Of a DNA stretch of 64,000 nt, positions 1 through 42,100 are shown one piece after another (positions within the stretch are counted from its first letter, which is position 1; each line of letters begins with the position of its first letter). Source of the stretch: Botryllus schlosseri (lineage: Eukaryota). The stretch is taken from contig CM119371.1 in assembly GCA_051294905.1 (NCBI GenBank), positions 19,036,001-19,100,000 of the forward strand, given 5' to 3'. The translations under genes and the position numbers were made by a program. Below the pieces are notes generated by a model, which did no database searches, was not told the origin of the DNA, and worked only from the letters and a program-made list of their open reading frames with translations.

Positions 1-1248
1 TTTCAATACACTCAGATTTTCATCAACGAGTAAACCCATCAAGTACTCTTTGAGACAGTTCAAGTCATACCGGCCGCCATTGAACGATAAAACAGGGATT
101 TGTTTTAAATATCGCATGAGCTCCTCTTGTAAACGTTCAAGTGGTATTTTTTTCTCGGAAGGATCGAGTGCTTTCATTTCGGTAATTTTAGTTTCGAGCA
201 TGCCCAAGTAGTGTTGATATTCCATCTGTAACAACCTAAATGACTCACTTTGAATATCATGAAAATGATCAACCATTTCCGCACACAAGTCGTTTGGGTC
301 GCCGTTCGAGACAATTACATACGGTTCCAAGAACCCTTCCACATTAGAAGATATACTAACGGAAATGGGGATATGTTTACACTCCCATGAAGTTTTGGAG
401 GAATCTGGAATATCACACTTCTCAAACATGCTCTCGATATCAAACGCGATACGGTATTTGAAATAACGAAGCTGGTGGGGAACGAACACCCCTTCTAGAT
501 CGAGTTTTTCAAAAATGTTCAAAGGAGGGCTATACACGCCACCCGGAAACACTTCAACAGGACCCGTTGCACATTTGTGTCTGGTCAATTCATACTGCAA
601 ATTGAAAAATCTTTGACAAACATCACATCGATAGCTCTCCATATATCGCCTCATATCAGTAATTAGGCAGAAATGGTTGCTTTCTAAATGTAAGTACACA
701 GGTTTCCCTTCAAACGTACTACGACGTAGTGCGACAGCTTTACCCTCGGTCTTGGTGTACACGAATATAGCGACATTAAACAAATCCTCGATATCATCCA
801 ACATGTCAAGAGTTACACCAGAATCTACATTGATGCCATATACCGACGTGAATTGTTGAGCCATTGCTTTTGTATCTTTTCCTAGCGAGTGGGCGATACA
901 ACGAAAAGCACACAGATTGTCGTTGTACAGGTTCTTATTTTTTCGACGCAACATTGTCATGATACATCTCGCTCTCGCAAGCCATTTCGGTAGCTTAATA
1001 CCAACACAACCAATCAACACACCATTGGTAGGATATACATATAACCGCGGGTTGATCAGACAGAACGATTGTGAATCACAGAAAACATCCAACCGCTTAC
1101 GATTGCTGACGCAAGTATTGTGCACGTGGCTACTGTTTACTACATACGATTTCACCGCTTGCCAGTTCTGGGGTGTAATTTGTTGGTGTTGGTTGTCGAT
1201 CTCTGGCGTCGCATCCCCATCCCTGTGATTCCACAGACATCGACTCAT
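1..1248 (-). CDS. Protein-primed family B DNA polymerase (pPolB), N-terminal part, runs off the left edge
   Basis: Absent from the ORF track. Hand translation from ATG 1248 puts all these motifs in one frame: DNLCAFRCIA (~895-921) and HLESNHFCLI (~661-690, vOTU-like Cys/His), a CxxC..HxC Zn motif, ExoI IAFDIES (430-450) and ExoII LSFNGGRYDL (61-90). Not every intervening codon was checked. Confidence 0.9.
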   Translation of the reverse strand, partial: MSRCLWNHRDGDATPEIDNQHQQITPQNWQAVKSYVVNSSHVHNTCVSNRKRLDVFCDSQSFCLINPRLYVYPTNGVLIGCVGIKLPKWLARARCIMTMLRRKNKNLYNDNLCAFRCIAHSLGKDTKAMAQQFTSVYGINVDSGVTLDMLDDIEDLFNVAIFVYTKTEGKAVALRRSTFEGKPVYLHLESNHFCLITDMRRYMESYRCDVCQRFFNLQYELTRHKCATGPVEVFPGGVYSPPLNIFEKLDLEGVFVPHQLRYFKYRIAFDIESMFEKCDIPDSSKTSWECKHIPISVSISSNVEGFLEPYVIVSNGDPNDLCAEMVDHFHDIQSESFRLLQMEYQHYLGMLETKITEMKALDPSEKKIPLERLQEELMRYLKQIPVLSFNGGRYDLNCLKEYLMGLLVDENLSVLK

Positions 1249-1606
1249 CTGTAAAATTGATAACGCATGGTTACATTCAACACTCGGTAATATTAAACTA
1301 GTGTTACTTACAATGTGGTTTCTTTTTCGGTGTCTTCCTTGGATCTTTATACTAAACAAGTAACATGTCAAACTATGTCGCTAACATAGTGCTATAGCAG
1401 ATAACTTACCAGTAGACTTGTGTATCCCACTTAATCATTGAGTTCGCTTTGTCTGTTCAACAACAAAATCATTACATCATGCTCACTAGTTCTGTGCAGT
1501 AATAACTCACCGTTTCAATTCTTTAATTCCACGCCTGTTTTGTCTGGGGACTGAATAAATAACAAATTATATTCATAAATCGAAGTATTCACACCGAATA
1601 ACTTAC
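1249..1606 (-). other. Four predicted short GT-AG introns separating 40-43 nt mini-exons upstream of the pPolB ATG
   Basis: Donors GTAAGT/GTGAGT at 1311, 1409, 1510, 1606. Acceptors TTACAG 1249, TTTAG 1352, AACAG 1453, TTCAG 1551. Introns are 56-63 nt. Confidence 0.6.
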
Positions 1607-1961
1607 CTATTAAACCCTTAATCCCTGCGTCGATGTAATCTCTATATGTAAACTATTTAAATCTAATGACATAACCGACTTGAGATATGAAATAATGTTA
1701 TCCACCTGGAAACAAATGATACATTAACAAACAACACAAAAATCATATTAAACAAACAAAATGTACAAATATATTCCAATAACACCACACACAATACATA
1801 CAAGTACATCTCAATAGAATTCAATGACAGGATTATTTTCTTGGGTCGCAATGAAAATGATTGAGATCATGAAAGACACATCGGCGTCGTAGTTTTTTTC
1901 ACCGTATAAATGGTGTGGTACATCTTGATCGTGCAAGTCCTGGCGGTATTTCGATATCAGC

Positions 1962-2663
1962 TCAATCAATCAACAAACCATCAGTGGGGTATACGTAAAA
2001 CTGTACATTAGCCAGACAGACCGCCCTGTATTTTGTATCTGGTCGAGAGTCTTGTAACACATCTAGTGCCGTTTCCAATCTTATAGATTCAACAAATTCA
2101 TCGAATTCAGCTAGTGATGTAATCGCTGCTGGGACTTCTAATACGCTATCGACGTTCGCCGATGCATGAAAATACCGAAATCTCCCAGCCGCGATGTTAT
2201 GTAAAATGATTCCATACGCGAAATTCACTTTGAAACGGGTCGACTCTGAGAAAAATATCGCTTGGATATCGCGGAAAACATCCGGTATCTCACGATCGAT
2301 GACTCGGATATTATACACGCGCCGACTCTGATTCACTACATATGATTTTATCGCTTGCCAGTTCTGGGATACAACTTCTTGGTATTGGTCGCCTGTCTCT
2401 GGTGGTGTGTCTTCTTCCTCGCGAACACGACTCCGTCTGCGTCGACTCACAGACTTCGGCCCTACCTGACGCGCTATATCTGCGTGGTTTGGTTGCATTT
2501 CGATCGTGAGGTCGCGTTCTGCGGATTCACCTCTTAAATCCGGTGTCATCAGATCACTAGGATTAATCGCATCAAAGATATCCGCGTTCTCTTCAAATTC
2601 CGATTCGAATGCATTTGGCTCATAACCAAATTTGTCAAGATTATCTATCTGAACCTCGGCCAT
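1962..2663 (-). CDS. Stand-alone homolog of the Polinton pPolB N-terminal (putative terminal protein) domain, 233 aa
   Basis: FKVNFAYGIILHN..RFRYFHAS..RPDTKY..NVQFYVY resembles the N-terminal region of Polinton pPolBs. It is paralogous to the start of the adjacent pPolB ORF. TATAAATA lies ~85 bp upstream on the minus strand. Confidence 0.75.
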   Translation of the reverse strand: MAEVQIDNLDKFGYEPNAFESEFEENADIFDAINPSDLMTPDLRGESAERDLTIEMQPNHADIARQVGPKSVSRRRRSRVREEEDTPPETGDQYQEVVSQNWQAIKSYVVNQSRRVYNIRVIDREIPDVFRDIQAIFFSESTRFKVNFAYGIILHNIAAGRFRYFHASANVDSVLEVPAAITSLAEFDEFVESIRLETALDVLQDSRPDTKYRAVCLANVQFYVYPTDGLLID

Positions 2664-2758
2664 TGTATAATAATTAATCTAATTGCTCCAACCAACGTTT
2701 ATGTCTGCAACAGCGAAGTATAACAACCGGATTGCGGTGTTGGCTATTTATAGATTTA

Positions 2759-4919: not shown

Positions 4920-5175
4920 CAATAGCCGCTCGCCACCCCCGCCATAAGACGAAAACGTTAGCTCGCCACCCCCGCCATAAGAAATAAGAGCCGCTCGCCA
5001 CCCCCGGTTTTCCAGCCGCTCGCCACCCCCGCCATAAGAAATAAGAGCCGCTCACCACCCCCGCCATAAGACGCAATAGCCGCTCACCACCCCCGCCATA
5101 AGAAATAAGAGCCGCTCACCACCCCCGGTTTTCCAGCCCGTCACCACCCCGCCCATAAGAGCCCCTGCCACCCCC
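4920..5175. repeat. Polinton subterminal tandem repeats (~27-31 bp, core GCCGCTC(G/A)CCACCCCCG)
   Basis: About 9 imperfect copies immediately inside the terminus. Confidence 0.9.
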
Positions 5176-17600: not shown

Positions 17601-18640
17601 GACCAACTCGATATTCTCAGCACTATGTTATGTGCTGTGGTCGTTGCGAATAGTATTATTATTATTATTTGGTCCCTGGTCTAATCGTCGCAAATATTAT
17701 GTTCGCAGTTGGCGTCCAGCTCTCCGTCACGTCGTTTCGGCCCAATGTTGTTGGAACATTCTGGCCATCCCCTGACGAAATGAATCTGGTTAATTTGGTA
17801 CTTACCTTCCGACCTTGATCTCGGGTATGATAGTCCGCCCTGGTGCTGAAGTGTTTCTTGCTTGTGACGTAGTTGTTCGTTTCGATTTTTCTGGCCACTT
17901 GTATTGTGTCAGGCACTTCGTCATGGTGTTGAGTTGTTGTTACGAGACGATTGATTACACGGATTGGTTGCGTATAGGGCTCAGTTTCGAACGTATTGCG
18001 CACCCGCGCTTTTAATACTGGACTTGACATTCTACGTAGCTCGGTCAGAACCGGGGTATCAATTTGGGATGATTTTATTCTACCAGAACTGAGCGGTCCA
18101 GACGATAGAACCGCGGCTGGAACCATGATCGCTACAATAGCACCGCTTGTGGCTCGAATATTGACGTTTTGGTCTATTTTGTTCAGGTGTCTCATCGGAA
18201 ATGCTTGTGGTGTTTATTCGTGTGACATTTGTGTACTGCCCCTGACGGGACCAAGCGCAGTACATTGTATGTCCTTCTTTGACGGCCTGCGTAGATATGC
18301 GTAGGCAAACAGCACAACACGTGTGGACTATCAGATCCCTACCGCCATGTGCGGGGCTAACGTCGTTTTTCTCGACAACTCATAACTCTACGATTCTCTC
18401 CCATTTGATCCCGTGCTATTCATATGGCAGGGTGGTTTTTTTCACTTGTTCCTTACTAGACCTAGCGATTCTTCCACCCTTAATTCAATGTATATGTGCA
18501 ACACTTCCAATCCTACAACACACCCACTTTCTGATGCAACAACTATTGCCGTAGTAATCTCCGGGTACTTATTTCACTAGTACCGAAAATAAAGCACAGC
18601 AATCGAATTGATCGAGTTTGTGCGGAAAAAAAATGCAAAA

Positions 18641-18759
18641 GCCTACATGCACCCGGTATTCCCAGCCGGTCACCCACGCAAGTACTAACTGAGCCCAACG
18701 CCGCTTAACTTCCGAGATCAGACGAGATCGGGTGTATTCAACGTGGTATGGTCGTAGGC
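18641..18759 (-). rRNA. RNA5S: 5S rRNA type A
   Basis: GCCTACGACCATACCACGTTGAATACACCCGATCTCGTCTGATCTCGGAAGTTAAGC...GCATGTAGGC then TTTT; boxes A and C present. Confidence 0.92.
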
Positions 18760-19187
18760 GACAGTGGATACAATCTGTGCCGTTTTACGTGACATTTTTC
18801 GTTCATCTCAGGCGAAAAGTCGCCACGCTGCCAACGATGAGACGCCTGAAAAGCAGATTGTCTGATTGCGCCAAGGCACTTTCGGCCCAATAACTGGAAA
18901 CAAAAGTCTGCTAGCGGTCGAATATCATTGGCGTCCTGCTCTGTTCTTGTATCTGGTCAACAAACACACAAGTAAGCTCTCGCTGTCAGAGTAGTTATTT
19001 TATTGCACTTTTCGTCATGTGAAAACAGCACGAGATTTCGATATAATGACAATGTGTTAGGCCTAGTATAACTACAAATTGAAATAAGCGGCGGCCAGCA
19101 AATGATGACATTCATAGTTGTACGTAGGCCTACGTGCGCATACAAAACAGTTGCAAGCAAATTGATCGTGTTTGCGCGACAAAAATA

Positions 19188-19305
19188 GCCTTCTACACCC
19201 GGTATTCCGAGCCGGTCACCCATGCAAGTACTAACCGGGCCCAACGTTGCTCGACTTCCGAGATCGGACGAGATCGGGTATATTCAACGTGGTATGGTGG
19301 TAGGC
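19188..19305 (-). rRNA. RNA5S: 5S rRNA type B
   Basis: 3' end GTGTAGAAGGC then TATTTTT; a few private substitutions. Confidence 0.88.
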
Positions 19306-19663
19306 AAGTGTGGTTACCAATTCTGACGTTTTATGTTGACAATTTCCGTCGCCATGCTGTCGACGAGACGCCAGAAAAGCAGATTGTCTGATTGCGCTGG
19401 GGCATTTTCAGCCCGTCTGCCAGCGTTCGAATATCGTTGGCATCCTGCTCTGTTCTTGTATCTTGTGGACAAACACACAATTAAGCTCTCGCTGTCAGAG
19501 TAGTTATTTTATTGTACTTTCTGTCATGTCAAAACAGTACGAGAGTTTGATATAATGAAAATGTGTTAGGCCGATTACAATTCCAAATTTCGCGCGATAG
19601 TTCATTTGAAAATAAAGCACAGCAATCGAATTGATCGAGTTTGTGCGGAAAAAAAATGCAAAA

Positions 19664-19782
19664 GCCTACGTGCACCCGGTATTCCCAGCCGGTCACCCAT
19701 GCAAGTACTAACTGAGCCCAACGCCGCTTAACTTCCGAGATCAGACGAGATCGGGTGTATTCAACGTGGTATGGTCGTAGGC
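19664..19782 (-). rRNA. RNA5S: 5S rRNA type A
   Basis: Array copy. Confidence 0.9.
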
Positions 19783-20210
19783 GACAGTGGATACAATCTG
19801 TGCCGTTTTACGTGACATTTTTCGTTCATCTCAGGCGAAAAGTCGCCACGCTGCCAACGATGAGACGCCTGAAAAGCAGATTGTCTGATTGCGCCAAGGC
19901 ACTTTCGGCCCAATAACTGGAAAGAAAAGTCTGCTAGCGGTCGAATATCATTGGCGTCCTGCTCTGTTCTTGCATCTGGTCAACAAACACACAAGTAAGC
20001 TCTCGCTGTCAGAGTAGTTATTTTATTGCACTTTTCGTCATGTGAAAACAGCACGAGATTTCGATATAATGACAATGTGTTAGGCCTAGTATAACTACAA
20101 ATTGAAATAAGCGGCGGCCAGCAAATGATGACATTCATAGTTGTACGTAGGCCTACGTGCGCATACAAAACAGTTGCAAGCAAATTGATCGTGTTTGCGC
20201 GACAAAAATA

Positions 20211-20328
20211 GCCTTCTACACCCGGTATTCCCAGCCGGTCACCCTCGCAAGTACTAACTGAGCCCAACGTCGCTTAAATTCCGGGATCAGACGAGATCGG
20301 GTGTATTCAACGTGGTATGGTCGTAGGC
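20211..20328 (-). rRNA. RNA5S: 5S rRNA A/B chimera
   Basis: Type A body with type B 3' end. Confidence 0.85.
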
Positions 20329-20756
20329 GACAGTGGATACAATCTGTGCCGTTTTACGTGACATTTTTCGTTCATCTCAGGCGAAAAGTCGCCACGCTGC
20401 CAACGATGAGACGCCTGAAAAGCAGATTGTCTGATTGTGCCAAGGCACTTTCGGCCCAATAACTGGAAAGAAAAGTCTGCTAGCGGTCGAATATCATTGG
20501 CGTCCTGCTCTGTTCTTGTATCTGGTCAACAAACACACAAGTAAGCTCTCGCTGTCAGAGTAGTTATTTTATTGCACTTTTCGTCATGTGAAAACAGCAC
20601 GAGATTTCGATATAATGACAATGTGTTAGGCCCAGTATAACTACAAATTGAAATAAGCGGCAGCCAGCAAATGATGACATTCATAGTTGTACGTAGGCCT
20701 ACGTGCGCATACAAAACAGTTGCAAGCAAATTGATCGTGTTTGCGCGACAAAAATA

Positions 20757-20874
20757 GCCTTCTACACCCGGTATTCCCAGCCGGTCACCCATGCAAGTAC
20801 TAACCGGGCCCAACGTTGCTCGACTTCCGAGATCGGACGAGATCGGGTATATTCAACGTGGTATGGTCGTAGGC
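20757..20874 (-). rRNA. RNA5S: 5S rRNA type B
   Basis: Array copy. Confidence 0.9.
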
Positions 20875-21232
20875 AAGTGTGGTTACCAATTCTGACGTTT
20901 TATGTTGACAATTTCCGTCGCCATGCTGTCGACGAGACGCCAGAAAAGCAGATTGTCTGATTGCGCTGGGGCATTTTCAACCCGTCTCCCAGCGTTCGAA
21001 TATCGTTGGCATCCTGCTCTGTTCTTGTATCTTGTGGACAAACACACAATTAAGCTCTCGCTGTCAGAGTAGTTATTTTATTGTACTTTCTGTCATGTCA
21101 AAACAGTACGAGAGTTTGATATAATGAAAATGTGTTAGGCCGATTACAATTCCAAATTTCGCGCGATAGTTCATTTGAAAATAAAGCACAGCAATCGAAT
21201 TGATCGAGTTTGTGCGGAAAAAAAATGCAAAA

Positions 21233-21351
21233 GCCTACATGCACCCGGTATTCCCAGCCGGTCACCCACGCAAGTACTAACTGAGCCCAACGCCGCTTAA
21301 CTTCCGAGATCAGACGAGATCGGGTGTATTCAACGTGGTATGGTCGTAGGC
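21233..21351 (-). rRNA. RNA5S: 5S rRNA type A
   Basis: Array copy. Confidence 0.9.
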
Positions 21352-21784
21352 GACAGTGGATACAATCTGTGCCGTTTTACGTGACATTTTTCGTTCATCT
21401 CAGGCGAAAAGTCGCCACGCTGCCAACGATGAGACGCCTGAAAAGCAGATTGTCTGATTGCGCCAAGGCACTTTCGGCCCAATAACTGGAAAGAAAAGTC
21501 TGCTAGCGGTCGAATATCATTGGCGTCCTGCTCTGTTCTTGTATCTGGTCAACAAACACACAAGTAAGCTCTCGCTGTCAGAGTAGTTATTTTATTGCAC
21601 TTTTCGTCATGTGAAAACAGCACGAGATTTCGATATAATGACAATGTGTTAGGCCTAGTATAACTACAAATTGAAATAAGCGGCGGCCAGCAAATGATGA
21701 CATTTATAGTTGTACGTAGGCCTACGTGCGCATACAAAACAGTTGCAATCTAATTGATCGAGTTTGTGCGACAAAAATGCAAAA

Positions 21785-21905
21785 GCCGTCTACTACACAC
21801 GGTATTCCCAGCCGGTCACCCATGCAAGTACTAACCGGGCCCAACGTTTCTTGACTTCCGAGATCGGACGAGATCGGGTATATTCAACGTGGTATGGTCG
21901 TAGGC
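21785..21905 (-). rRNA. RNA5S: 5S rRNA type C
   Basis: Array copy. Confidence 0.85.
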
Positions 21906-22250
21906 AAGTGTGGTTACCAATTCTGACGTTTTATGTGACAATTTCCGTCGACAGCCGCCAGAAAAGCAGATTGTCTGATTGCGCTGGGGCATTTTCAACC
22001 CGTCTGCCAGCGTTCGAATATCGTTGGCATCCTGCTCTGTTCTTGTATCTTGTGGACAAACACACAATTAAGCTCTCGCTGTCAGAGTAGTTATTTTATT
22101 GTACTTTCTGTCATGTCAAAACAGTACGAGAGTTTGATATAATGAAAATGTGTTAGGCCGATTACAATTCCAAATTTCGCGCGATAGTTCATTTGAAAAT
22201 AAAGCACAGCAATCGAATTGATCGAGTTTGTGCGGAAAAAAAATGCAAAA

Positions 22251-22369
22251 GCCTACGTGCACCCGGTATTCCCAGCCGGTCACCCATGCAAGTACTAACT
22301 GAGCCCAACGCCGCTTAACTTCCGAGATCAGACGAGATCGGGTGTATTCAACGTGGTATGGTCGTAGGC
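22251..22369 (-). rRNA. RNA5S: 5S rRNA type A
   Basis: Array copy. Confidence 0.9.
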
Positions 22370-22797
22370 GACAGTGGATACAATCTGTGCCGTTTTACGT
22401 GACATTTTTCGTTCATCTCAGGCGAAAAGTCGCCACGCTGCCAACGATGAGACGCCTGAAAAGCAGATTGTCTGATTGCGCCAAGGCACTTTCGGCCCAA
22501 TAACTGGAAAGAAAAGTCTGCTAGCGGTCGAATATCATTGGCGTCCTGCTCTGTTCTTGCATCTGGTCAACAAACACACAAGTAAGCTCTCGCTGTAGGA
22601 GTAGTTATTTTATTGCACTTTTCGTCATGTGAAAACAGCACGAGATTTCGATATAATGACAATGTGTTAGGCCTAGTATAACTACAAATTGAAATAAGCG
22701 GCGGCCAGCAAATGATGACATTCATAGTTGTACGTAGGCCTACGTGCGCATACAAAACAGTTGCAAGCAAATTGATCGTGTTTGCGCGACAAAAATA

Positions 22798-22915
22798 GCC
22801 TTCTACACCCGGTATTCCCAGCCGGTCACCCACGCAAGTACTAACTGAGCCCAACGTCGCTTAAATTCCGAGATCAGACGAGATCGGGTGTATTCAACGT
22901 GGTATGGTCGTAGGC
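22798..22915 (-). rRNA. RNA5S: 5S rRNA A/B chimera
   Basis: Type A body with type B 3' end. Confidence 0.85.
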
Positions 22916-23343
22916 GACAGTGGATACAATCTGTGCCGTTTTACGTGACATTTTTCGTTCATCTCAGGCGAAAAGTCGCCACGCTGCCAACGATGAGACG
23001 CCTGAAAAGCAGATTGTCTGATTGCGTCAAGGCACTTTCGGCCCAATAACTGGAAAGAAAAGTCTGCTAGCGGTCGAATATCATTGGCGTCCTGCTCTGT
23101 TCTTGTATCTGGTCAACAAACACACAAGTAAGCTCTCGCTGTCAGAGTAGTTATTTTATTGCACTTTTCGTCATGTGAAAACAGCACGAGATTTCGATAT
23201 AATGACAATGTGTTAGGCCTAGTATAACTACAAATTGAAATAAGCGGCGGCCAGCAAATGATGACATTCATAGTTGTACGTAGGCCTACGTGCGCATACA
23301 AAACAGTTGCAAGCAAATTGATCGTGTTTGCGCGACAAAAATA

Positions 23344-23461
23344 GCCTTCTACACCCGGTATTCCCAGCCGGTCACCCATGCAAGTACTAACCGGGCCCAA
23401 CGTTGCTTGACTTCCGAGATCGGACGAGATCGGGTATATTCAACGTGGTATGGTCGTAGGC
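23344..23461 (-). rRNA. RNA5S: 5S rRNA type B
   Basis: Array copy. Confidence 0.9.
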
Positions 23462-23819
23462 AAGTGTGGTTACCAATTCTGACGTTTTATGTTGACAATT
23501 TCCGTCGCCATGCTGTCGACGAGACGCCAGAAAAGCAGATTGTCTGATTGCGCTGGGGCATTTTCAACCCGTCTGCCAGCGTTCGAATATCGTTGGCATC
23601 CTGCTCTGTTCTTGTATCTTGTGGACAAACACACAATTAAGCTCTCGCTGTCAGAGTAGTTATTTTATTGTACTTTCTGTCATGTCAAAACAGTACGAGA
23701 GTTTGATATAATGAAAATGTGTTAGGCCGATTACAATTCCAAATTTCGCGCGATAGTTCATTTGAAAATAAAGCACAGCAATCGAATTGATCGAGTTTGT
23801 GCGGAAAAAAAATGCAAAA

Positions 23820-23938
23820 GCCTACATGCACCCGGTATTCCCAGCCGGTCACCCATGCAAGTACTAACTGAGCCCAACGCCGCTTAACTTCCGAGATCAG
23901 ACGAGATCGGGTGTATTCAACGTGGTATGGTCGTAGGC
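23820..23938 (-). rRNA. RNA5S: 5S rRNA type A
   Basis: Array copy. Confidence 0.9.
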
Positions 23939-24366
23939 GACAGTGGATACAATCTGTGCCGTTTTACGTGACATTTTTCGTTCATCTCAGGCGAAAAGTC
24001 GCCACGCTGCCAACGATGAGACGCCTGAAAAGCAGATTGTCTGATTGCGTCAAGGCACTTTCGGCCCAATAACTGGAAAGAAAAGTCTGCTAGCGGTCGA
24101 ATATCATTGGCGTCCTGCTCTGTTCTTGTATCTGGTCAACAAACACACAAGTAAGCTCTCGCTGTCAGAGTAGTTATTTTATTGCACTTTTCGTCATGTG
24201 AAAACAGCACGAGATTTCGATATAATGACAATGTGTTAGGCCTAGTATAACTACAAATTGAAATAAGCGGCGGCCAGCAAATGATGACATTCATAGTTGT
24301 ACGTAGGCCTACGTGCGCATACAAAACAGTTGCAAGCAAATTGATCGTGTTTGCGCGACAAAAATA

Positions 24367-24484
24367 GCCTTCTACACCCGGTATTCCCAGCCGGTCACCC
24401 ATGCAAGTACTAACCGGGCCCAACGTTTCTTGACTTCCGAGATCGGACGAGATCGGGTATATTCAACGTGGTATGGTCGTAGGC
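24367..24484 (-). rRNA. RNA5S: 5S rRNA B/C chimera
   Basis: Type C 5' part with type B 3' end. Confidence 0.87.
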
Positions 24485-24831
24485 AAGTGTGGCTACCAAT
24501 TCTGACGTTTTATGTGACAATTTCCGTCGACAGCCGCCAGAAAAGCAGATTGTCTGATTGCGCTGGGGCATTTTCAACCCGTCTGCCAGCGTTCGAATAT
24601 CGTTGGCATCCTGCTCTGTTCTTGTATCTTGTGGACAAACACACAATTAAGCTCTCGCTGTCAGAGTAGTTATTTTATTGTACTTTCTGTCATGTCAAAA
24701 CAGTACGAGAGTTTGATATAATGAAAATGTGTTAGTCCGATTACAATTCCAAATTTCGCGCGATAGTTCATTTGAAAATAAAGCACAGCAATCGAATTGA
24801 TCGAGTTTCCGCGGAAAAAAAAAATGCAAAA

Positions 24832-24950
24832 GCCTACATGCACCCGGTATTCCCAGCCGGTCACCCATGCACGTACTAACTGAGCCCAACGCCGCTTAAC
24901 TTCCGAGATCAGACGAGATCGGGTGTATTCAACGTGGTATGGTCGTAGGC
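24832..24950 (-). rRNA. RNA5S: 5S rRNA type A
   Basis: Array copy. Confidence 0.9.
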
Positions 24951-25378
24951 GACAGTGGATACAATCTGTGCCGTTTTACGTGACATTTTTCGTTCATCTC
25001 AGGCGAAAAGTCGCCACGCTGCCAACGATGAGACGCCTGAAAAGCAGATTGTCTGATTGTGCCAAGGCACTTTCGGCCCAATAACTGGAAAGGAAAGTCT
25101 GCTAGCGGTCGAATATCATTGGCGTCCTGCTCTGTTCTTGTATCTGGTCAACAAACACACAAGTAAGCTCTCGCTGTCAGAGTAGTTATTTTATTGCACT
25201 TTTCGTCATGTGAAAACAGCACGAGATTTCGATATAATGACAATGTGTTAGGCCTAGTATAACTACAAATTGAAATAAGCGGCGGCCAGCAAATGATGAC
25301 ATTCATAGTTGTACGTAGGCCTACGTGCGCATACAAAACAGTTGCAAGCAAATTGATCGTGTTTGCGCGACAAAAATA

Positions 25379-25496
25379 GCCTTCTACACCCGGTATTCCC
25401 AGCCGGTCACCCATGCAAGTACTAACCGGGCCCAACGTTGCTTGACTTCCGAGATCGGACGAGATCGGGTATATTCAACGTGGTATGGTCGTAGGC
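25379..25496 (-). rRNA. RNA5S: 5S rRNA type B
   Basis: Array copy. Confidence 0.9.
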
Positions 25497-25854
25497 AAGT
25501 GTGGTTACCAATTCTGACGTTTTATGTTGACAATTTCCGTCGCCATGCTGTCGACGAGACGCCAGAAAAGCAGATTGTCTGATTGCGCTGGGGCATTTTC
25601 AACCCGTCTGCCAGCGTTCGAATATCGTTGGCATCCTGCTCTGTTCTTGTATCTTGTGGACAAACACACAATTAAGCTCTCGCTGTCAGAGTAGTTATTT
25701 TATTGTACTTTCTGTCATGTCAAAACAGTACGAGAGTTTGATATTATGAAAATGTGTTAGGCCGATTACAATTCCAAATTTCGCGCGATAGTTCATTTGA
25801 AAATAAAGCACAGCAATCGAATTGATCGAGTTTGTGCGGAAAAAAAATGCAAAA

Positions 25855-25973
25855 GCCTACATGCACCCGGTATTCCCAGCCGGTCACCCATGCAAGTACT
25901 AACTGAGCCCAACGCCGCTTAACTTCCGAGATCAGACGAGATCGGGTGTATTCAACGTGGTATGGTCGTAGGC
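25855..25973 (-). rRNA. RNA5S: 5S rRNA type A
   Basis: Array copy. Confidence 0.9.
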
Positions 25974-26401
25974 GACAGTGGATACAATCTGTGCCGTTTT
26001 ACGTGACATTTTTCGTTCATCTCATGCGAAAAGTCGCCACGCTGCCAACGATGAGACGCCTGAAAAGCAGATTGTCTGATTGCGCCAAGGCACTTTCGGC
26101 CCAATAACTGGAAAGAAAAGTCTGCTAGCGGTCGAATATCATTGGCGTCCTGCTCTGTTCTTGTATCTGGTCAACAAACACACAAGTAAGCTCTCGCTGT
26201 CAGAGTAGTTATTTTATTGCACTTTTCGTCATGTGAAAACAGCACGAGATTTCGATATAATGACAATGTGTTAGGCCTAGTATAACTACAAATTGAAATA
26301 AGCGGCGGCCAGCAAATGATGACATTCATAGTTGTACGTAGGCCTACGTGCGCATACAAAACAGTTGCAAGCAAATTGATCGTGTTTGCGCGACAAAAAT
26401 A

Positions 26402-26519
26402 GCCTTCTACACCCGGTATTCCCAGCCGGTCACCCATGCAAGTACTAACCGGGCCCAACGTTGCTTGACTTCCGAGATCGGACGAGATCGGGTATATTCA
26501 ACGTGGTATGGTCGTAGGC
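26402..26519 (-). rRNA. RNA5S: 5S rRNA type B
   Basis: Array copy. Confidence 0.9.
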
Positions 26520-26877
26520 AAGTGTGGTTACCAATTCTGACGTTTTATGTTGACAATTTCCGTCGCCATGCTGTCGACGAGACGCCAGAAAAGCAGATTG
26601 TCTGATTGCGCTGGGGCATTTTCAACCCGTCTGCCAGCGTTCGAATATCGTTGGCATCCTGCTCTGTTCTTGTATCTTGTGGACAAACACACAATTAAGC
26701 TCTCGCTGTCAGAGTAGTTATTTTATTGTACTTTCTGTCATGTCAAAACAGTACGAGAGTTTGATATAATGAAAATGTGTTAGGCCGATTACAATTCCAA
26801 ATTTCGCGCGATAGTTCATTTGAAAATAAAGCACAGCAATCGAATTGATCGAGTTTGTGCGGAAAAAAAATGCAAAA

Positions 26878-26996
26878 GCCTACATGCACCCGGTATTCCC
26901 AGCCGGTCACCCATGCAAGTACTAACTGAGCCCAACGCCGCTCAACTTCCGAGATCAGACGAGATCGGGTGTATTCAACGTGGTATGGTCGTAGGC
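26878..26996 (-). rRNA. RNA5S: 5S rRNA type A
   Basis: Array copy. Confidence 0.9.
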
Positions 26997-27424
26997 GACA
27001 GTGGATACAATCTGTACCGTTTTACGTGACATTTTTCGTTCATCTCAGGCGAAAAGTCGCCACGCTGCCAACGATGAGACGCCTGAAAAGCAGATTGTCT
27101 GATTGCGCCAAGGCACTTTCGGCCCAATAACTGGAAAGAAAAGTCTGCTAGCGGTCGAATATCATTGGCGTCCTGCTCTGTTCTTGTATCTGGTCAACAA
27201 ACACACAAGTAAGCTCTCGCTGTCAGAGTAGTTATTTTATTGCACTTTTCGTCATATGAAAACAGCACGAGATTTCGATATAATGACAATGTGTTAGGCC
27301 TAGTATAACTACAAATTGAAATAAGCGGCGGCCAGCAAATGATGACATTCATAGTTGTACGTAGGCCTACGTGCGCATACAAAACAGTTGCAAGCAAATT
27401 GATCGTGTTTGCGCGACAAAAATA

Positions 27425-27542
27425 GCCTTCTACACCCGGTATTCCCAGCCGGTCACCCATGCAAGTACTAACCGGGCCCAACGTTGCTTGACTTCCGAGA
27501 TCGGACGAGATCGGGTATATTCAACGTGGTATGGTCGTAGGC
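27425..27542 (-). rRNA. RNA5S: 5S rRNA type B
   Basis: Array copy. Confidence 0.9.
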
Positions 27543-27900
27543 AAGTGTGGTTACCAATTCTGACGTTTTATGTTGACAATTTCCGTCGCCATGCTGTCGA
27601 CGAGACGCCAGAAAAGCAGATTGTCTGATTGCGCTGGGGCATTTTCAACCCGTCTGCCAGCGTTCGAATATCGTTGGCATCCTGCTCTGTTCTTGTATCT
27701 TGTGGACAAACACACAATTAAGCTCTCGCTGTCAGAGTAGTTATTTTATTGTACTTTCTGTCATGTCAAAACAGTACGAGAGTTTGATACAATGAAAATG
27801 TGTTAGGCCGATTACAATTCCAAATTTCGCGCGATAGTTCATTTGAAAATAAAGCACAGCAATCGAATTGATCGAGTTTGTGCGGAAAAAAAATGCAAAA

Positions 27901-28019
27901 GCCTACATGCACCCGGTATTCCCAGCCGGTCACCCATGCAAGTACTAACTGAGCCCAACGCCGCTTAACTTCCGAGATCAGACGAGATCGGGTGTATTCA
28001 ACGTGGTATGGTCGTAGGC
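27901..28019 (-). rRNA. RNA5S: 5S rRNA type A
   Basis: Array copy. Confidence 0.9.
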
Positions 28020-28447
28020 GACAGTGGATACAATCTGTTCCGTTTTACGTGACATTTTTCGTTCATCTCAGGCGAAAAGTCGCCACGCTGCCACCGATGA
28101 GACGCCTGAAAAGCAGATTGTCTGATTGCGCCAAGGCACTTTCGGCCCAATAACTGGAAAGAAAAGTCTGCTAGCGGTCGAATATCATTGGCGTCCTGCT
28201 CTGTTCTTGTATCTGGTCAACAAACACACAAGTAAGCTCTCGCTGTCAGAGTAGTTATTTTATTGCACTTTTCGTCATGTGAAAACAGCACGAGATTTCG
28301 ATATAATGACAATGTGTTAGGCCTAGTATAACTACAAATTGAAATAAGCGGCGGCCAGCAAATGATGACATTCATAGTTGTACGTAGGCCTACGTGCGCA
28401 TACAAAACAGTTGCAAGCAAATTGATCGTGTTTGCGCGACAAAAATA

Positions 28448-28565
28448 GCCTTCTACACCCGGTATTCCCAGCCGGTCACCCATGCAAGTACTAACCGGGC
28501 CCAACGTTTCTTGACTTCCGAGATCGGACGAGATCGGGTATATTCAACGTGGTATGGTCGTAGGC
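28448..28565 (-). rRNA. RNA5S: 5S rRNA B/C chimera
   Basis: Type C 5' part with type B 3' end. Confidence 0.87.
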
Positions 28566-28910
28566 AAGTGTGGTTACCAATTCTGACGTTTTATGTGACA
28601 ATTTCCGTCGACAGCCGCCAGAAAAGCAGATTGTCTGATTGCGCTGGGGCATTTTCAACCCGTCTGCCAGGGTTCGAATATCGTTGGCATCCTGCTCTGT
28701 TCTTGTATCTTTTGGACAAACACACAATTAAGCTCTCGCTGTCAGAGTAGTTATTTTATTGTACTTTCTGTCATGTCAAAACAGTACGAGAGTTTGATAT
28801 AATGAAAATGTGTTAGGCCGATTACAATTCCAAATTTCGCGCGATAGTTCATTTGAAAATAAAGCACAGCAATCGAATTGATCGAGTTTGTGCGGAAAAA
28901 AAATGCAAAA

Positions 28911-29029
28911 GCCTACATGCACTCGGTATTCCCAGCCGGTCACCCATGCAAGTACTAACTGAGCCCAACGCCGCTTAACTTCCGAGATCAGACGAGATCG
29001 GGTGTATTCAACGTGGTATGGTCGTAGGC
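28911..29029 (-). rRNA. RNA5S: 5S rRNA type A
   Basis: Array copy. Confidence 0.9.
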
Positions 29030-29457
29030 GACAGTGGATACAATCTGTGCCGTTTTACGTGACATTTTTCGTTCATCTCAGGCGAAAAGTCGCCACGCTG
29101 CCAACGATGAGACGCCTGAAAAGCAGATTGTCTGATTGCGCCAAGGCACTTTCGGCCCAATAACTGGAAAGAAAAGTCTGCTAGCGGTCGAATATCATTG
29201 GCGTCCTGCTCTGTTCTTGTATCTGGTCAACAAACACACAAGTAAGCTCTCGCTGTCAGAGTAGTTATTTTATTGCACTTTTCGTCATGTGAAAACAGCA
29301 CGAGATTTCAATATAATGACAATGTGTTAGGCCTAGTATAACTACAAATTGAAATAAGCGGCGGCCAGCAAATGATGACATTCATAGTTGTACGTAGGCC
29401 TACGTGCGCATACAAAACAGTTGCAAGCAAATTGATCGTGTTTGCGCGACAAAAATA

Positions 29458-29575
29458 GCCTTCTACACCCGGTATTCCCAGCCGGTCACCCATGCAAGTA
29501 CTAACCGGGCCCAACGTTGCTTGACTTCCGAGATCGGACGAGATCGGGTATATTCAACGTGGTATGGTCGTAGGC
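29458..29575 (-). rRNA. RNA5S: 5S rRNA type B
   Basis: Array copy. Confidence 0.9.
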
Positions 29576-29933
29576 AAGTGTGGTTACCAATTCTGACGTT
29601 TTATGTTGACAATTTCCGTCGCCATGCTGTCGACGAGACGCCAGAAAAGCAGATTGTCTGATTGCGCTGGGGCATTTTCAACCCGTCTGCCAGTGTTCGA
29701 ATATCGTTGGCATCCTGCTCTGTTCTTGTATCTTGTGGACAAACACACAATTAAGCTCTCGCTGTCAGAGTAGTTTTTTTATTGTACTTTCTGTCATGTC
29801 AAAACAGTACGAGAGTTTGATATAATGAAAATGTGTTAGGCCGATTACAATTCCAAATTTCGCGCGATAGTTCATTTGAAAATAAAGCACAGCAATCGAA
29901 TTGATCGAGTTTGTGCGGAAAAAAAATGCAAAA

Positions 29934-30052
29934 GCCTACATGCACCCGGTATTCCCAGCCGGTCACCCATGCAAGTACTAACTGAGCCCAACGCCGCTTA
30001 ACTTCCGAGATCAGACGAGATCGGGTGTATTCAACGTGGTATGGTCGTAGGC
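29934..30052 (-). rRNA. RNA5S: 5S rRNA type A
   Basis: Array copy. Confidence 0.9.
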
Positions 30053-30485
30053 GACAGTGGATACAATCTGTGCCGTTTTACGTGACATTTTTCGTTCATC
30101 TCAGGCGAAAAGTCGCCACGCTGCCAACGATGAGACGCCTGAAAAGCAGATTGTCTGATTGCGCCAAGGCACTTTCGGCCCAATAACTGGAAAGAAAAGT
30201 CTGCTAGCGGTCGAATATCATTGGCGTCCTGCTCTGTTCTTGTATCTGGTCAACAAACACACAAGTAAGCTCTCGCTGTCAGAGTAGTTATTTTATTGCA
30301 CTTTTCGTCATGTGAAAACAGCACGAGATTTCGATATAATGACAATGTGTTAGGCCTAGTATAACTACAAATTGAAATAAGCGGCGGCCAGCAAATGATG
30401 ACATTTATAGTTGTACGTAGGCCTACGTGCGCATACAAAACAGTTGCAATCTAATTGATCGAGTTTGTGCGACAAAAATGCAAAA

Positions 30486-30606
30486 GCCGTCTACTACACA
30501 TGGTATTCCCAGCCGGTCACCCATGCAAGTACTAACCGGGCCCAACGTTTCTTGACTTCCGAGATCGGACGAGATCGGGTATATTCAACGTGGTATGGTC
30601 GTAGGC
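30486..30606 (-). rRNA. RNA5S: 5S rRNA type C
   Basis: Array copy. Confidence 0.85.
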
Positions 30607-30951
30607 AAGTGTGGTTACCAATTCTGACGTTTTATGTGACAATTTCCGTCGACAGCCGCCAGAAAAGCAGATTGTCTGATTGCGCTGGGGCATTTTCAAC
30701 CCGTCTGCCAGCGTTCGAATATCGTTGGCATCCTGCTCTGTTCTTGTATCTTGTGGACAAACACACAATTAAGCTCTCGCTGTCAGAGTAGTTATTTTAT
30801 TGTACTTTCTGTCATGTCAAAACAGTACGAGAGTTTGATATAATGAAAATGTGTTAGGCCGATTACAATTCCAAATTTCGCGCGATAGTTCATTTGAAAA
30901 TAAAGCACAGCAATCGAATTGATCGAGTTTGCGCGGAAAAAAAATGCAAAA

Positions 30952-31070
30952 GCCTACATGCACCCGGTATTCCCAGCCGGTCACCCATGCAAGTACTAAC
31001 TGAGCCCAACGCCGCTTAACTTCCGAGATCAGACGAGATCGGGTGTATTCAACGTGGTATGGTCGTAGGC
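30952..31070 (-). rRNA. RNA5S: 5S rRNA type A
   Basis: Array copy. Confidence 0.9.
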
Positions 31071-31498
31071 GACAGTGGATACAATCTGTGCCGTTTTACG
31101 TGACATTTTTCGTTCATCTCAGGCGAAAAGTCGCCACGCTGCCAACGATGAGACGCCTGAAAAGCAGATTGTCTGATTGTGCCAAGGCACTTTCGGCCCA
31201 ATAACTGGAAAGAAAAGTCTGCTAGCGGTCGAATATCATTGGCGTCCTGCTCTGTTCTTGTATCTGGTCAACAAACACACAAGTAAGCTCTCGCTGTCAG
31301 AGTAGTTATTTTATTGCACTTTTCGTCATGTGAAAACAGCACGAGATTTCAATATAATGACAATGTGTTAGGCCTAGTATAACTACAAATTGAAATAAGC
31401 GGCGGCCAGCAAATGATGACATTCATAGTTGTACGTAGGCCTACGTGCGCATACAAAACAGTTGCAAGCAAATTGATCGTGTTTGCGCGACAAAAATA

Positions 31499-31616
31499 GC
31501 CTTCTACACCCGGTATTCCCAGCCGGTCACCCATGCAAGTACTAACCGCGCCCAACGTTGCTTGACTTCCGAGATCGGACGAGATCGGGTATATTCAACG
31601 TGGTATGGTCGTAGGC
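31499..31616 (-). rRNA. RNA5S: 5S rRNA type B
   Basis: Array copy. Confidence 0.9.
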
Positions 31617-31974
31617 AAGTGTGGTTACCAATTCTGACGTTTTATGTTGACAATTTCCGTCGCCATGCTGTCGACGAGACGCCAGAAAAGCAGATTGTCT
31701 GATTGCGCTGGGGCATTTTCAACCCGTCTGCCAGCGTTCGAATATCGTTGGCATCCTGCTCTGTTCTTGTATCTTGTGGACAAACACACAATTAAGCTCT
31801 CGCTGTCAGAGTAGTTATTTTATTGTACTTTCTGTCATGTCAAAACAGTACGAGAGTTTGATATAATGAAAATGTGTTAGGCCGATTACAATTCCAAATT
31901 TCGCGCGATAGTTCATTTGAAAATAAAGCACAGCAATCGAATTGATCGAGTTTGTGCGGAAAAAAAATGCAAAA

Positions 31975-32093
31975 GCCTACATGCACCCGGTATTCCCAGC
32001 CGGTCACCCATGCAAGTACTAACTGAGCCCAACGCCGCTTAACTTCCGAGATCAGACGAGTTCGGGTGTATTCAACGTGGTATGGTCGTAGGC
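31975..32093 (-). rRNA. RNA5S: 5S rRNA type A
   Basis: Array copy. Confidence 0.9.
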
Positions 32094-32521
32094 GACAGTG
32101 GATACAATCTGTGCCGTTTTACGTGACATTTTTCGTTCATCTCATGCGAAAAGTCGCCACGCTGCCAACGATGAGACGCCTGAAAAGCAGATTGTCTGAT
32201 TGCGCCAAGGCACTTTCGGCCCAATAACTGGAAAGAAAAGTCTGCTAGCGGTCGAATATCATTGGCGTCCTGCTCTGTTCTTGTATCTGGTCAACAAACA
32301 CACAAGTAAGCTCTCGCTGTCAGAGTAGTTATTTTATTGCACTTTTCGTCATGTGAAAACAGCACGAGATTTCGATATAATGACAATGTGTTAGGCCTAG
32401 TATAACTACAAATTGAAATAAGCGGCGGCCAGCAAATGATGACATTCATAGTTGTACGTAGGCCTACGTGCGCATACAAAACAGTTGCAAGCAAATTGAT
32501 CGTGTTTGCGCGACAAAAATA

Positions 32522-32639
32522 GCCTTCTACACCCGGTATTCCCAGCCGGTCACCCATGCAAGTACTAACCGGGCCCAACGTTGCTTGACTTCCGAGATCG
32601 GACGAGATCGGGTATATTCAACGTGGTATGGTCGTAGGC
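32522..32639 (-). rRNA. RNA5S: 5S rRNA type B
   Basis: Array copy. Confidence 0.9.
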
Positions 32640-32997
32640 AAGTGTGGTTACCAATTCTGACGTTTTATGTTGACAATTTCCGTCGCCATGCTGTCGACGA
32701 GACGCCAGAAAAGCAGATTGTCTGATTGCGCTGGGGCATTTTCAACCCGTCTGCCAGCGTTCGAATATCGTTGGCATCCTGCTCTGTTCTTGTATCTTGT
32801 GGACAAACACACAATTAAGCTCTCGCTGTCAGAGTAGTTATTTTATTGTACTTTCTGTCATGTCAAAACAGTACGAGAGTTTGATATAATGAAAATGTGT
32901 TAGGCCGATTACAATTCCAAATTTCGCGCGATAGTTCATTTGAAAATAAAGCACAGCAATCGAATTGATCGAGTTTGTGCGGAAAAAAAATGCAAAA

Positions 32998-33116
32998 GCC
33001 TACATGCACCCGGTATTCCCAGCCGGTCACCCATGCAAGTACTAACTGAGCCCAACGCCGCTTAACTTCCGAGATCAGACGAGATCGGGTGTATTCAACG
33101 TGGTATGGTCGTAGGC
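32998..33116 (-). rRNA. RNA5S: 5S rRNA type A
   Basis: Array copy. Confidence 0.9.
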
Positions 33117-33544
33117 GACAGTGGATACAATCTGTACAGTTTTACGTGACATTTTTCGTTCATCTCAGGCGAAAAGTCGCCACGCTGCCAACGATGAGAC
33201 GCCTGAAAAGCAGATTGTCTGATTGCGCCAAGGCACTTTCGGCCCAATAACTGGAAAGAAAAGTCTGCTAGCGGTCGAATATCATTGGCGTCCTGCTCTG
33301 TTCTTGTATCTGGTCAACAAACACACAAGTAAGCTCTCGCTGTCAGAGTAGTTATTTTATTGCACTTTTCGTCATGTGAAAACAGCACGAGATTTCGATA
33401 TAATGACAATGTGTTAGGCCTAGTATAACTACAAATTGAAATAAGCGGCGGCCAGCAAATGATGACATTCATAGTTGTACGTAGGCCTACGTGCGCATAC
33501 AAAACAGTTGCAAGCAAATTGATCGTGTTTGCGCGACAAAAATA

Positions 33545-33662
33545 GCCTTCTACACCCGGTATTCCCAGCCGGTCACCCATGCAAGTACTAACCGGGCCCA
33601 ACGTTGCTTGACTTCCGAGATCGGACGAGATCGGGTATATTCAACGTGGTATGGTCGTAGGC
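33545..33662 (-). rRNA. RNA5S: 5S rRNA type B
   Basis: Array copy. Confidence 0.9.
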
Positions 33663-34020
33663 AAGTGTGGTTACCAATTCTGACGTTTTATGTTGACAAT
33701 TTCCGTCGCCATGCTGTCGACGAGACGCCAGAAAAGCAGATTGTCTGATTGCGCTGGGGCATTTTCAACCCGTCTGCCAGCGTTCGAATATCGTTGGCAT
33801 CCTGCTCTGTTCTTGTATCTTGTGGACAAACACACAATTAAGCTCTCGCTGTCAGAGTAGTTATTTTATTGTACTTTCTGTCATGTCAAAACAGTACGAG
33901 AGTTTGATATAATGAAAATGTGTTAGGCCGATTACAATTCCAAATTTCGCGCGATAGTTCATTTGAAAATAAAGCACAGCAATCGAATTGATCGAGTTTG
34001 TGCGGAAAAAAAATGCAAAA

Positions 34021-34139
34021 GCCTACATGCACCCGGTATTCCCAGCCGGTCACCCATGCAAGTACTAACTGAGCCCAACGCCGCTTAACTTCCGAGATCA
34101 GACGAGATCGGGTGTATTCAACGTGGTATGGTCGTAGGC
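34021..34139 (-). rRNA. RNA5S: 5S rRNA type A, upstream flank interrupted at -18
   Basis: Array copy next to the CACTG element. Confidence 0.9.
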
Positions 34140-41715: not shown

Positions 41716-42100
41716 TATCTCTCCCCCCTATCTCTCTCCTCCCCTTTTTCTCCCTCATCTCTCTCTCTCTCTCTCTCTCTTGCTCTCCTTTCTCTATGCT
41801 CCCTTTCCCTTCTTTCTCCCTCTCTTCTTTCTGCTTTATTCTCTATATCTCCCCCCTCTCTCTCTCCCCTATCTCTCTCCTCCCCTCCCCCTTCCCCTCT
41901 CTATCTCCTTTCTCTATGCTCTCTTTCCCTTCTTTCTCCCCCTATCTTCTTTCTGCTCTATTCTCTATCTCTCCCTCCTCCTCTCTCTCCTCACCCTCCT
42001 CTCTCTCTCTCCCTCCCCATCCGCTCTCTCTCCCTCCCCCCTCCTCTCTCTCTCTCTCTCCCTTTCTCTCAGTGACGATGATGATGATAATTATGATGAT
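41716..42100. repeat. CT-rich polypyrimidine tract followed by a short (GAT)n
   Basis: Seen directly. Confidence 0.95.

Follow-up and report, generated by a model that had tools for sequence, protein, structure and literature searches.

The window analysed here, a stretch of 64,000 nucleotides from Botryllus schlosseri (assembly GCA_051294905.1, contig CM119371.1, positions 19,036,001 to 19,100,000), carries, judged by its genes, one end of a Polinton/Maverick-type (adintovirus-like) element. Two open reading frames (ORFs) of this element lie on the minus strand, one encoding a protein of 233 aa (1962-2663) and the other a protein-primed DNA polymerase of family B (pPolB) that starts at an ATG at 1248 and runs off the window start (Table 1). 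In the passages of Krupovic, Kuhn, Fischer & Koonin that treat these enzymes, polinton pPolBs start with a domain named D1, which is followed by a viral OTU-like (vOTU) protease (PMC11071308). D1 is described there as a four-stranded sheet, with an optional fifth strand, and two helices; by modelling it is a homologue of the PRD1 and adenovirus terminal proteins (TPs) and of the little finger of Y-family polymerases, and the linking Ser or Tyr is placed in the loop between a2 and b4, with a Gly or Pro nearby. We consider it probable that the two ORFs of the window arose by fission of a Polinton replication gene and that the 233-aa protein is the priming TP, which would act in trans with a polymerase that has lost its own TP domain.

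The stand-alone D1 gene and its polymerase

Both ORFs are as quoted in the original prediction, which had proposed from the letters of the window that the N-terminal domain of the polymerase is present twice. Comparison of the two products by BLASTP bore this out, as residues 85-144 of the small protein align with residues 12-69 of the polymerase product (E 1e-12, 30/74 identical), and residues 200-232 align with residues 53-79 (E 8e-6). The fused copy lacks ~78 aa of its core, between ..DVF.D.Q.. and ..CL.N..YVYP, and stays in frame as had been claimed, the polymerase ORF being uninterrupted at 1,198 aa once the flank from the same contig was added. At the end of the intact copy there is a TGA where the fused copy has TGT, and the YVYPT codons of the two differ synonymously (tac gta tac ccc act versus tat gta tat cct acc), both likewise as first described. 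This stop directly follows the border between D1 and vOTU, whose ..IG motif is at least 90% conserved among 38 pPolB sequences, and past the TGA the similarity goes on into a decayed OTU start (IEIPPGLARSRC versus IKLPKWLARARC).

The description of the small ORF as an intact N-terminal copy holds for D1, from V72 on, and has to be revised for residues 1-71, which are not polymerase-derived. When gene X, a 292-aa gene of the standard elements described below, was used as a tblastn query, it was 85% identical to the 233-aa ORF across aa 1-68; by sequence the ORF is thus a chimera whose first 71 aa come from this neighbouring gene. In most genomic copies the junction reads CTGAAGTCG followed directly by GTGAGTCGACG, that is, X codon 71 plus one G, then the TG of the polymerase start codon, in frame. 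A splice-mediated junction, suggested by the acceptor before the polymerase ATG, was rejected, as the copies place the junction one base into the ATG, where X is without a GT donor; the junction is now read as an in-frame deletion at the DNA level. The candidate TATA-box region is common to the small gene and to gene X of standard elements, and the promoter of the small gene is presumably also derived from X. The D1 part is 62-94% identical to the stand-alone and fused D1s of other genomic copies (62-84% for the fused ones alone) and 37% identical to that of a foreign 1,030-aa pPolB. Neither the 233-aa ORF nor gene X has a match in Pfam, and the protein atlas search gave no usable match either. 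Among protein homologues, the 233-aa query had one match of near length (168 aa, ending ..LIG) and one among longer proteins, too few to map the split across species. A 168-aa protein on an 858-nt public contig (P0003) starts in leader read-through and ends exactly in ..MLIG, with a D1 almost identical to the fused D1 of one standard element (L025); it may represent another variant of the split type, or else a truncated gene call.

An AlphaFold (AF2) model of the 233-aa protein, built from 38 aligned sequences, has a pLDDT above 90 for aa 85-230, with residues 1-84 disordered. Its predicted strands and helices run b0-b1-a1-b2-b3-a2-b4 (E108-111, E115-120, H126-139, E144-156, E161-165, H184-206, E212-226), an order that matches D1 as given in the passages of PMC11071308 cited above. 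The loop at 207-211 reads RPDTK; its Thr is invariant in alignment A2 (T139) and present in 17/17 genomic copies with an open small ORF, while the Pro is replaced in five of these. A profile search returned 7,383 pPolB-like proteins; the profile spanned 1,030 positions (a full-length pPolB being in the alignment), and its matches, dominated by the polymerase, supplied diverse N-termini for the folds. Among the 32 foreign pPolB N-termini listed, which were selected as matches beginning at the profile start, shared D1 motifs were present in all, and a RP(N/D)(T/S)(K/S)(W/Y) motif recurs in many. Searches with the TP model gave weak matches: in BFVD an adintovirus protein ranked first (E 3.3e-5) and bidnavirus-like and MELD-virus pPolBs came next; in the PDB, Foldseek placed pol kappa first (E 0.04); and a search independent of Foldseek returned Y-family little-finger regions in 10 of 50 rows (Z 3.7-4.7). 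Though weak, these model-based searches agree in direction, pointing to pPolB N-termini and the little finger.

The polymerase of the window is 92.7% identical to a standard pPolB over aa 145-661, and the latter matches Pfam PF03175 (E 6.5e-8, above cutoff). Its vOTU region is predicted with a pLDDT of 87-97, and the Foldseek rows listed against the PDB are OTU domains or OTU-type viral proteases, including OTUD1 (4bop_A; E 2.9e-3, prob 1.00) and the TYMV and MRFV proteases; the Pfam OTU model gave no OTU family match at E up to 1, and the domain is recognisable by fold and motif only. C113 and H192 are invariant in 41 sequences, and the two residues are present in all 18 split copies listed, so that the earlier claim of an intact vOTU Cys and His stands. 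In the zinc-finger motif that follows, C208, C211, and H224 are invariant.

Table 1. Features of the D1 gene, the spacer and the polymerase (window coordinates)
Feature	Position	Strand	Remarks
Candidate TATA box TATAAATAG	2744..2752	minus	~80 nt upstream of the small-gene ATG; read from sequence, putative promoter element
Stand-alone 233-aa gene, N-terminus of X fused to pPolB D1 (putative TP)	1962..2663	minus	stop TGA at 1964-1962 included
Residues 1-71, from the 5' end of gene X	2451..2663	minus	acidic, predicted disordered; pLDDT ~50
Complete D1 (putative terminal-protein) domain	1965..2450	minus	spans V72 (GTG, once the pPolB start codon) to the conserved ..LIG border
Thr210 codon in the RPDTK loop	2034..2036	minus	between helix a2 and strand b4; candidate DNA-linking residue for a putative priming role
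Decayed vOTU start of the first, internally deleted pPolB copy	1892..1961	minus	81% identical to the L014 pPolB OTU start over 58 nt; one stop and one frameshift
Relic of the last ~20 codons of an L012/L014-type pPolB and the intron after the pPolB stop	1706..1891	minus	79% identity over 261 nt to the L012/L014 pPolB 3' end
Relic of the beginning (~32 codons) of downstream gene Y, with GTG in place of its ATG	1607..1705	minus	flanked by acceptor and donor; at the site of leader exon 1; presumed exon
Leader upstream of the polymerase ATG	1249..1606	minus	GT..AG introns 1606-1551, 1510-1453, 1409-1352, 1311-1249
Leader mini-exons	1550-1511, 1452-1410, 1351-1312	minus	between predicted introns
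TP-less pPolB, first 416 codons	1..1248	minus	ATG 1248; whole ORF 1,198 aa, ends 2,348 nt left of the window
D1 remnant (aa 1-80) fused to the polymerase	1009..1248	minus	b2, b3, a2 and the RPDTK loop missing; closes with the conserved LIG border; pLDDT 39-68
vOTU-like cysteine protease domain, aa ~85-200	649..996	minus	Cys113 (codon 912-910), His192 (codon 675-673)
C2H2-like zinc-finger motif between vOTU and exonuclease domain	562..627	minus	weak Pfam zf-C2H2 match, E 0.021, below cutoff

Split and standard layouts in the genome

When the 495-Mb assembly was searched in six frames with the 233-aa protein as query, 150 of 327 candidates were scored matches. In 33 rows of this search, residues ~60-232 matched the beginning of a frame open over at least 1,200 aa and residues 1-81 matched a separate open frame of ~300 aa located ~1.5 kb upstream, which defines a standard family that is the more numerous of the two. 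The order read in two of its members (L025 and L034) is gene X (292 aa), a spacer, four mini-introns, and a 1,280-aa pPolB that starts MSRRRRNRV and has a complete N-terminal domain; standard pPolBs measure 1,280-1,300 aa and comprise D1 (the putative TP), the vOTU protease, the exonuclease, and the polymerase. The split layout was found at 20 or more loci (L001-L020, among them the window), which lie on no fewer than 10 contigs. Sixteen of these 20 loci have the X-derived N-terminus (the 15 copies other than the window are 78-96% identical), and in the remaining four (L017-L020) the gene is a 162-aa version that has kept the original ATG and is preceded by a second leader copy. Both subtypes are without the body of X. 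In the one own-ATG copy whose upstream DNA was read (L018; L018/L045 4001-4240), the site of gene X is occupied by an unrelated ORF of ~80 aa (MSSIKRHH..) that runs into the leader, and X is absent.

The split copies are alike in their lesions. The same downstream deletion, corresponding to aa ~65-144 of the standard pPolB, was seen in all 19 copies (of 20) with matches to the downstream gene on either side of it, L020 being too decayed to tell, and the stop of the first copy and the composite spacer are common to all of them. The small ORF is open to the shared stop in 17/20 copies (broken in L006, L016, and L020), and the remnant is in frame with vOTU in 18/20. Where the polymerase was read at full length, four of seven were intact at 1,197-1,198 aa (the window, L007, L008, and L018), the L014 frame has 1,114 aa and another C-terminus, and those of L002 and L012 are broken. 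The split is therefore family-wide, with the same stop, the same deletion of ~78-80 aa, and the same spacer at 20 loci; the possibility raised at the outset, that it might exist in a single defective copy, does not hold, although the copy in the window is itself defective through a retrotransposon insertion. At three of the loci, on three contigs (L013, L014, and L015), the stand-alone TP proteins and the first 240 aa of the polymerase are identical, which hints at recent copying.

The 713 nt between the small-gene stop and the polymerase ATG are a composite of an OTU start, a pPolB 3' end, a 3' intron, the start of gene Y, and the leader (Table 1). The relic of the pPolB 3' end also matches, more weakly, the sequence that follows the pPolB stop in the window's own element and in a standard element, and the leader is joined to the Y relic at the leader's first donor. 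From this composite spacer we infer that the first copy was a whole polymerase gene, since deleted internally, and that the duplicated unit ran from the leader into Y. The polymerases of L012 and L014 end ~84 aa earlier than the others, with a different C-terminus (..RYDADASFH.LNRFHSDPR), and the same sequence is the relic found behind the TP gene in all split copies.

The four leader introns measure 56-63 nt each, with GT..AG ends, and the region is conserved in standard elements. Three raw RNA runs yielded 18-29 reads, most of them only partly on the stretch, and are uninformative on expression or on splicing of the ORFs; run X1 alone, consisting of contigs that we take, by a guess, to be RNA, was informative. 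One of its contigs lacks exactly 1352-1409 and 1453-1510, the other two leader introns being predicted only, and another is unspliced from 2342 to 1782, across the small-ORF stop. As regards the question, raised with the original prediction, of whether splicing joins the 233-aa ORF to the polymerase, nothing joining them was seen, in RNA data too thin to exclude it. Among the 15 ORFs of standard element L034, only pPolB and the next gene, Y, have an ATG immediately preceded by an acceptor (..cag), and the pPolB stop is followed by an intron; the counterparts of these acceptors in the window are at 1249-1250 and 1706-1707. X, pPolB, and Y may form one alternatively spliced transcription unit.

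Selection on each part was measured as pairwise Nei-Gojobori dN/dS with a codon bootstrap (95% ranges in brackets). Stand-alone D1 gave 0.24 (0.18-0.32) at a dS of 0.29, the X-derived part 0.47 (0.24-0.90), and the D1 remnant in the polymerase 0.46 (0.32-0.63), while the vOTU region gave 0.21 (0.16-0.27) in split copies and 0.22 (0.15-0.30) in standard ones. The small ORF is under purifying selection. The comparison of the two D1 copies that had been proposed earlier returned a lower value for the stand-alone copy than for the remnant (0.24 versus 0.46), and gene conversion could supply part of the low stand-alone value.

A single clade of split copies, which was expected, was not recovered: FastTree trees of ~480 nt mix split and standard copies. 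These trees were midpoint rooted, their support values were not inspected, and no order of events is drawn from them; we read the mixture as reflecting recombination.

Origin of the split and competing explanations

The reading of the two ORFs as a fission is supported by the presence of the split across the family, the open small ORF in 17/20 copies, the dN/dS of stand-alone D1, the D1-like order of strands and helices in its model, and the invariant Cys and His of a vOTU domain that folds as an OTU. The independent fission of TP and polymerase that had originally been proposed is upheld in this sense, with the amendment that the duplicated unit would be the whole leader, pPolB, and 3' flank, well beyond the N-terminal domain. 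As the same second-copy deletion and the same first-copy stop recur across split copies, a single origin by tandem duplication followed by reciprocal deletions can be inferred. In the proposed course of events, a unit made up of leader, pPolB, 3' intron, and the start of gene Y would have been duplicated in tandem. In copy 1, the stretch from the OTU start to the last ~20 codons would have been deleted and a TGA would have arisen immediately behind the ..LIG border, leaving D1 alone; in copy 2, the D1 core would have been deleted together with the loop that carries the candidate linking Thr, with vOTU, exonuclease, and polymerase kept. In the subtype of the window, a further in-frame deletion would have fused the first 71 codons of X and its upstream region onto the D1 gene, probably as a later or separate step in what is a tentative order of events. 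The 233-aa protein would then be made already free, prime through Thr210, and act in trans as in adenoviruses and PRD1; because it would be made separately, no cleavage would be needed to free the primer, and vOTU may have been kept in a different role: cleaving off the N-terminal remnant, deubiquitination, or both.

Several observations weigh against this interpretation. The copy in the window is dead as an element, as an LTR retrotransposon sits inside its 423-aa gene, and its TP ends in D (D233) where the conserved residue is G. Full-length reading of the polymerase covered 7/20 split copies (the window and six others). The pairwise dN/dS values are mutually non-independent, and the stand-alone D1s are mosaics in which blocks such as AYAFILYHIETL or NTKSLPVCLTN also occur in D1s that are fused to the polymerase of standard elements. 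The low dN/dS could therefore be due in part to gene conversion by fused copies that are under selection; because the copies are mosaic and the short trees mix the two architectures, part of the constraint may be imported by recombination. Matches of the TP model to solved structures are below usual significance, with a best Z overall of 5.0, and PRD1 TP and adenovirus pTP are not among the 50 BFVD rows shown, so that of the structural check suggested at first, the order of strands and helices and the high pLDDT are favourable and the relationship to these two proteins was not recovered. Finally, the assignment of D1 as a TP is a structural one from published modelling, with no polinton D1 tied experimentally to priming.

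The alternative that survives best, although we regard it as unlikely, is that the split elements are derivatives, defective or else non-autonomous, that persist only through a complete pPolB supplied by standard elements; their small ORF and shortened polymerase would be rearrangement debris, and the open frames and low dN/dS would stem from youth and gene conversion. The greater number of standard elements with frames of at least 1,200 aa (33 rows), the intermixing of split and standard sequences in the D1 and OTU trees together with the shared sequence blocks, the retrotransposon in the window copy, and the two broken polymerases among the seven read are all consistent with this. Debris is, however, hard to reconcile with copies that differ by up to ~21% in protein and yet, in 17/20 cases, keep a frame of 162-235 codons with the same stop in all, nor would it be expected to combine a dS of 0.29 with a dN/dS of 0.24 in stand-alone D1. 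The TP-less polymerase frame of 1,197-1,198 aa is likewise kept in 4/7 copies, and vOTU is as constrained in split as in standard copies (0.21 versus 0.22). The remnant, too, has a dN/dS below 1 (0.46), and conversion from a standard copy would restore its deleted core.

Even less probable, in our estimation, is a 233-aa protein that is functional without being the primer, serving instead as a decoy or regulator that binds the polymerases of competing elements, or as a factor binding DNA ends, with the polymerase primed in some other way. Many related elements coexist in the genome, the subtype of the window has a foreign, acidic, and disordered N-terminal extension of 71 aa, and the priming role of D1 is unproven. 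Against such a role stands the pattern of loss and retention, as the polymerase remnant lost exactly the loop with the conserved Thr/Ser and shows no other visible primer domain, while the stand-alone copy keeps this loop in 17/17 open copies. That the two ORFs are exons of one gene, with splicing or readthrough restoring a single TP-vOTU-polymerase, would fit an intron-rich region with four leader introns (two of them missing from one contig) and an acceptor directly before the polymerase ATG, but it is highly improbable given the stops in the ORF frame within leader exons and inter-ORF relics, the second stop and frameshift that readthrough of the TGA would meet, the one and a half D1 domains of the fused product, and the run X1 contig left unspliced from 2342 to 1782 across the stop.

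Known systems and the remainder of the window

A full-text literature search for such a split found the work of Krupovic et al. alone. The passages of PMC11161782 and of its preprint, PMC11071308, on the Stylophora coral adintovirus (StCAV), a hood-coral polinton, describe a separate TP gene and an active vOTU on pPolB, and call this an independent split within polintons. As in the window, D1/TP has its own gene there, and a vOTU with catalytic Cys and His is still fused to pPolB (PMC11161782, in the same passages); StCAV is compared here by its description rather than its sequence, and the window family may even be the same family. StCAV was not among the BFVD rows shown for the TP model. The D1 remnant, the relics of a duplicated pPolB, the chimeric N-terminus, and the copy-number and selection data were obtained here and are not mentioned for StCAV in the passages of PMC11161782 and PMC11071308 that deal with it.

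The E2B region of Adenoviridae is similar in combining a stand-alone TP of PRD1-like fold with a pPolB that has an N-terminal vOTU-like domain, as stated in the adenovirus passages of PMC11071308. The adenovirus vOTU has, however, lost its catalytic residues, whereas here Cys113 and His192 are invariant and the domain is constrained (dN/dS 0.21); the state of the window family is therefore that of the coral polinton and not of adenoviruses. Adenovirus pTP also has large helical insertions and extensions according to those passages, while the sole extension here is the disordered 71-aa piece of X, absent in the second subtype. Independence from the adenovirus split is likely. In tectivirus PRD1, TP (gene VIII) and pPolB are separate too, and the TP fold is said to be common with D1, but its pPolB is without a vOTU domain (PMC11071308, in the passages on PRD1), and the split in the window family would be secondary, from a fused ancestor. 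The standard Polinton/Maverick elements of the same genome have the same gene order, leader, integrase, ATPase, and other genes, with a D1 78-84% and a vOTU-Pol part 75-93% identical; their fused D1 would have to be cleaved off at the ..IG border, whereas here a stop codon stands at that border and the fused D1 is gutted.

The layout itself is thus already in print for a coral polinton, and it is the origin that is unusually clear here. New are the chimeric N-terminus, the reconstructed duplicated unit, the second subtype, the leader introns, and the selection figures, including the undiminished constraint on vOTU. In the literature, the separate TP and dead vOTU of adenoviruses are traced to a polinton ancestor that underwent a split, one coral element serving as the example; here ~20 diverged split copies stand beside their unsplit parent family with relics of the event still readable. 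A route of tandem duplication, reciprocal deletion, and promoter capture can be reconstructed from them, the selective fate of each piece can be measured, and the small protein and the TP-less polymerase form a natural two-component system for a first biochemical test of D1 as a primer. The gain is one of detail and testability, not of a new principle. More tentatively, the family may be a preserved intermediate on the way to an adenovirus-type replication module that puts a published hypothesis to the test, with vOTU holding an essential job beyond TP release (deubiquitination against host defence, or processing of another site) and the new TP gene expressed through a promoter and first 71 codons taken from its neighbour. 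Such a job is suggested by vOTU having stayed as constrained after the split as in standard copies; we hold this extended scenario to be possible, with the odds against it, and if it is true, the loss of vOTU in adenoviruses would need a different explanation.

To the left of the window, after the polymerase, the element continues with a P-loop ATPase-like gene, an integrase of the rve type that has a chromodomain, and several ORFs that Pfam does not match. The integrase, in a 356-aa ORF of the same element, matches Pfam rve with E 2.5e-16. As for capsid proteins, a maturation protease, and a packaging ATPase, the 203-aa P-loop protein had weak Pfam matches alone (AAA_14 below cutoff, RNA_helicase just above it), and the 423-aa, 167-aa, and other element ORFs had none. 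The LTR-type retrotransposon in the 423-aa gene comprises a DUF7041 gag-like ORF, reverse transcriptase, RNase H, and integrase, and extends from ~-8,700 to -13,600 in window coordinates (L031/L032). Within the window, just past a divergent 211-aa gene and possibly near the end of the element, a short array at 4924-5160 consists of repeats of 32-121 bp rich in CCACCCCCGCCATAAGA. Two tandem-repeat arrays with a unit of ~1,015 bp, 97-98% identity between units, and flat base composition occupy 18000-34200 and 42000-62000; in the first of them, the one checked, an ORF of at least 300 aa was not found. Between the two, at 36231-36680, degenerate (CCCTAA)n is followed head to head by (TTAGGG)n, an interstitial telomere-like pair mid-way in a 42-Mb contig.

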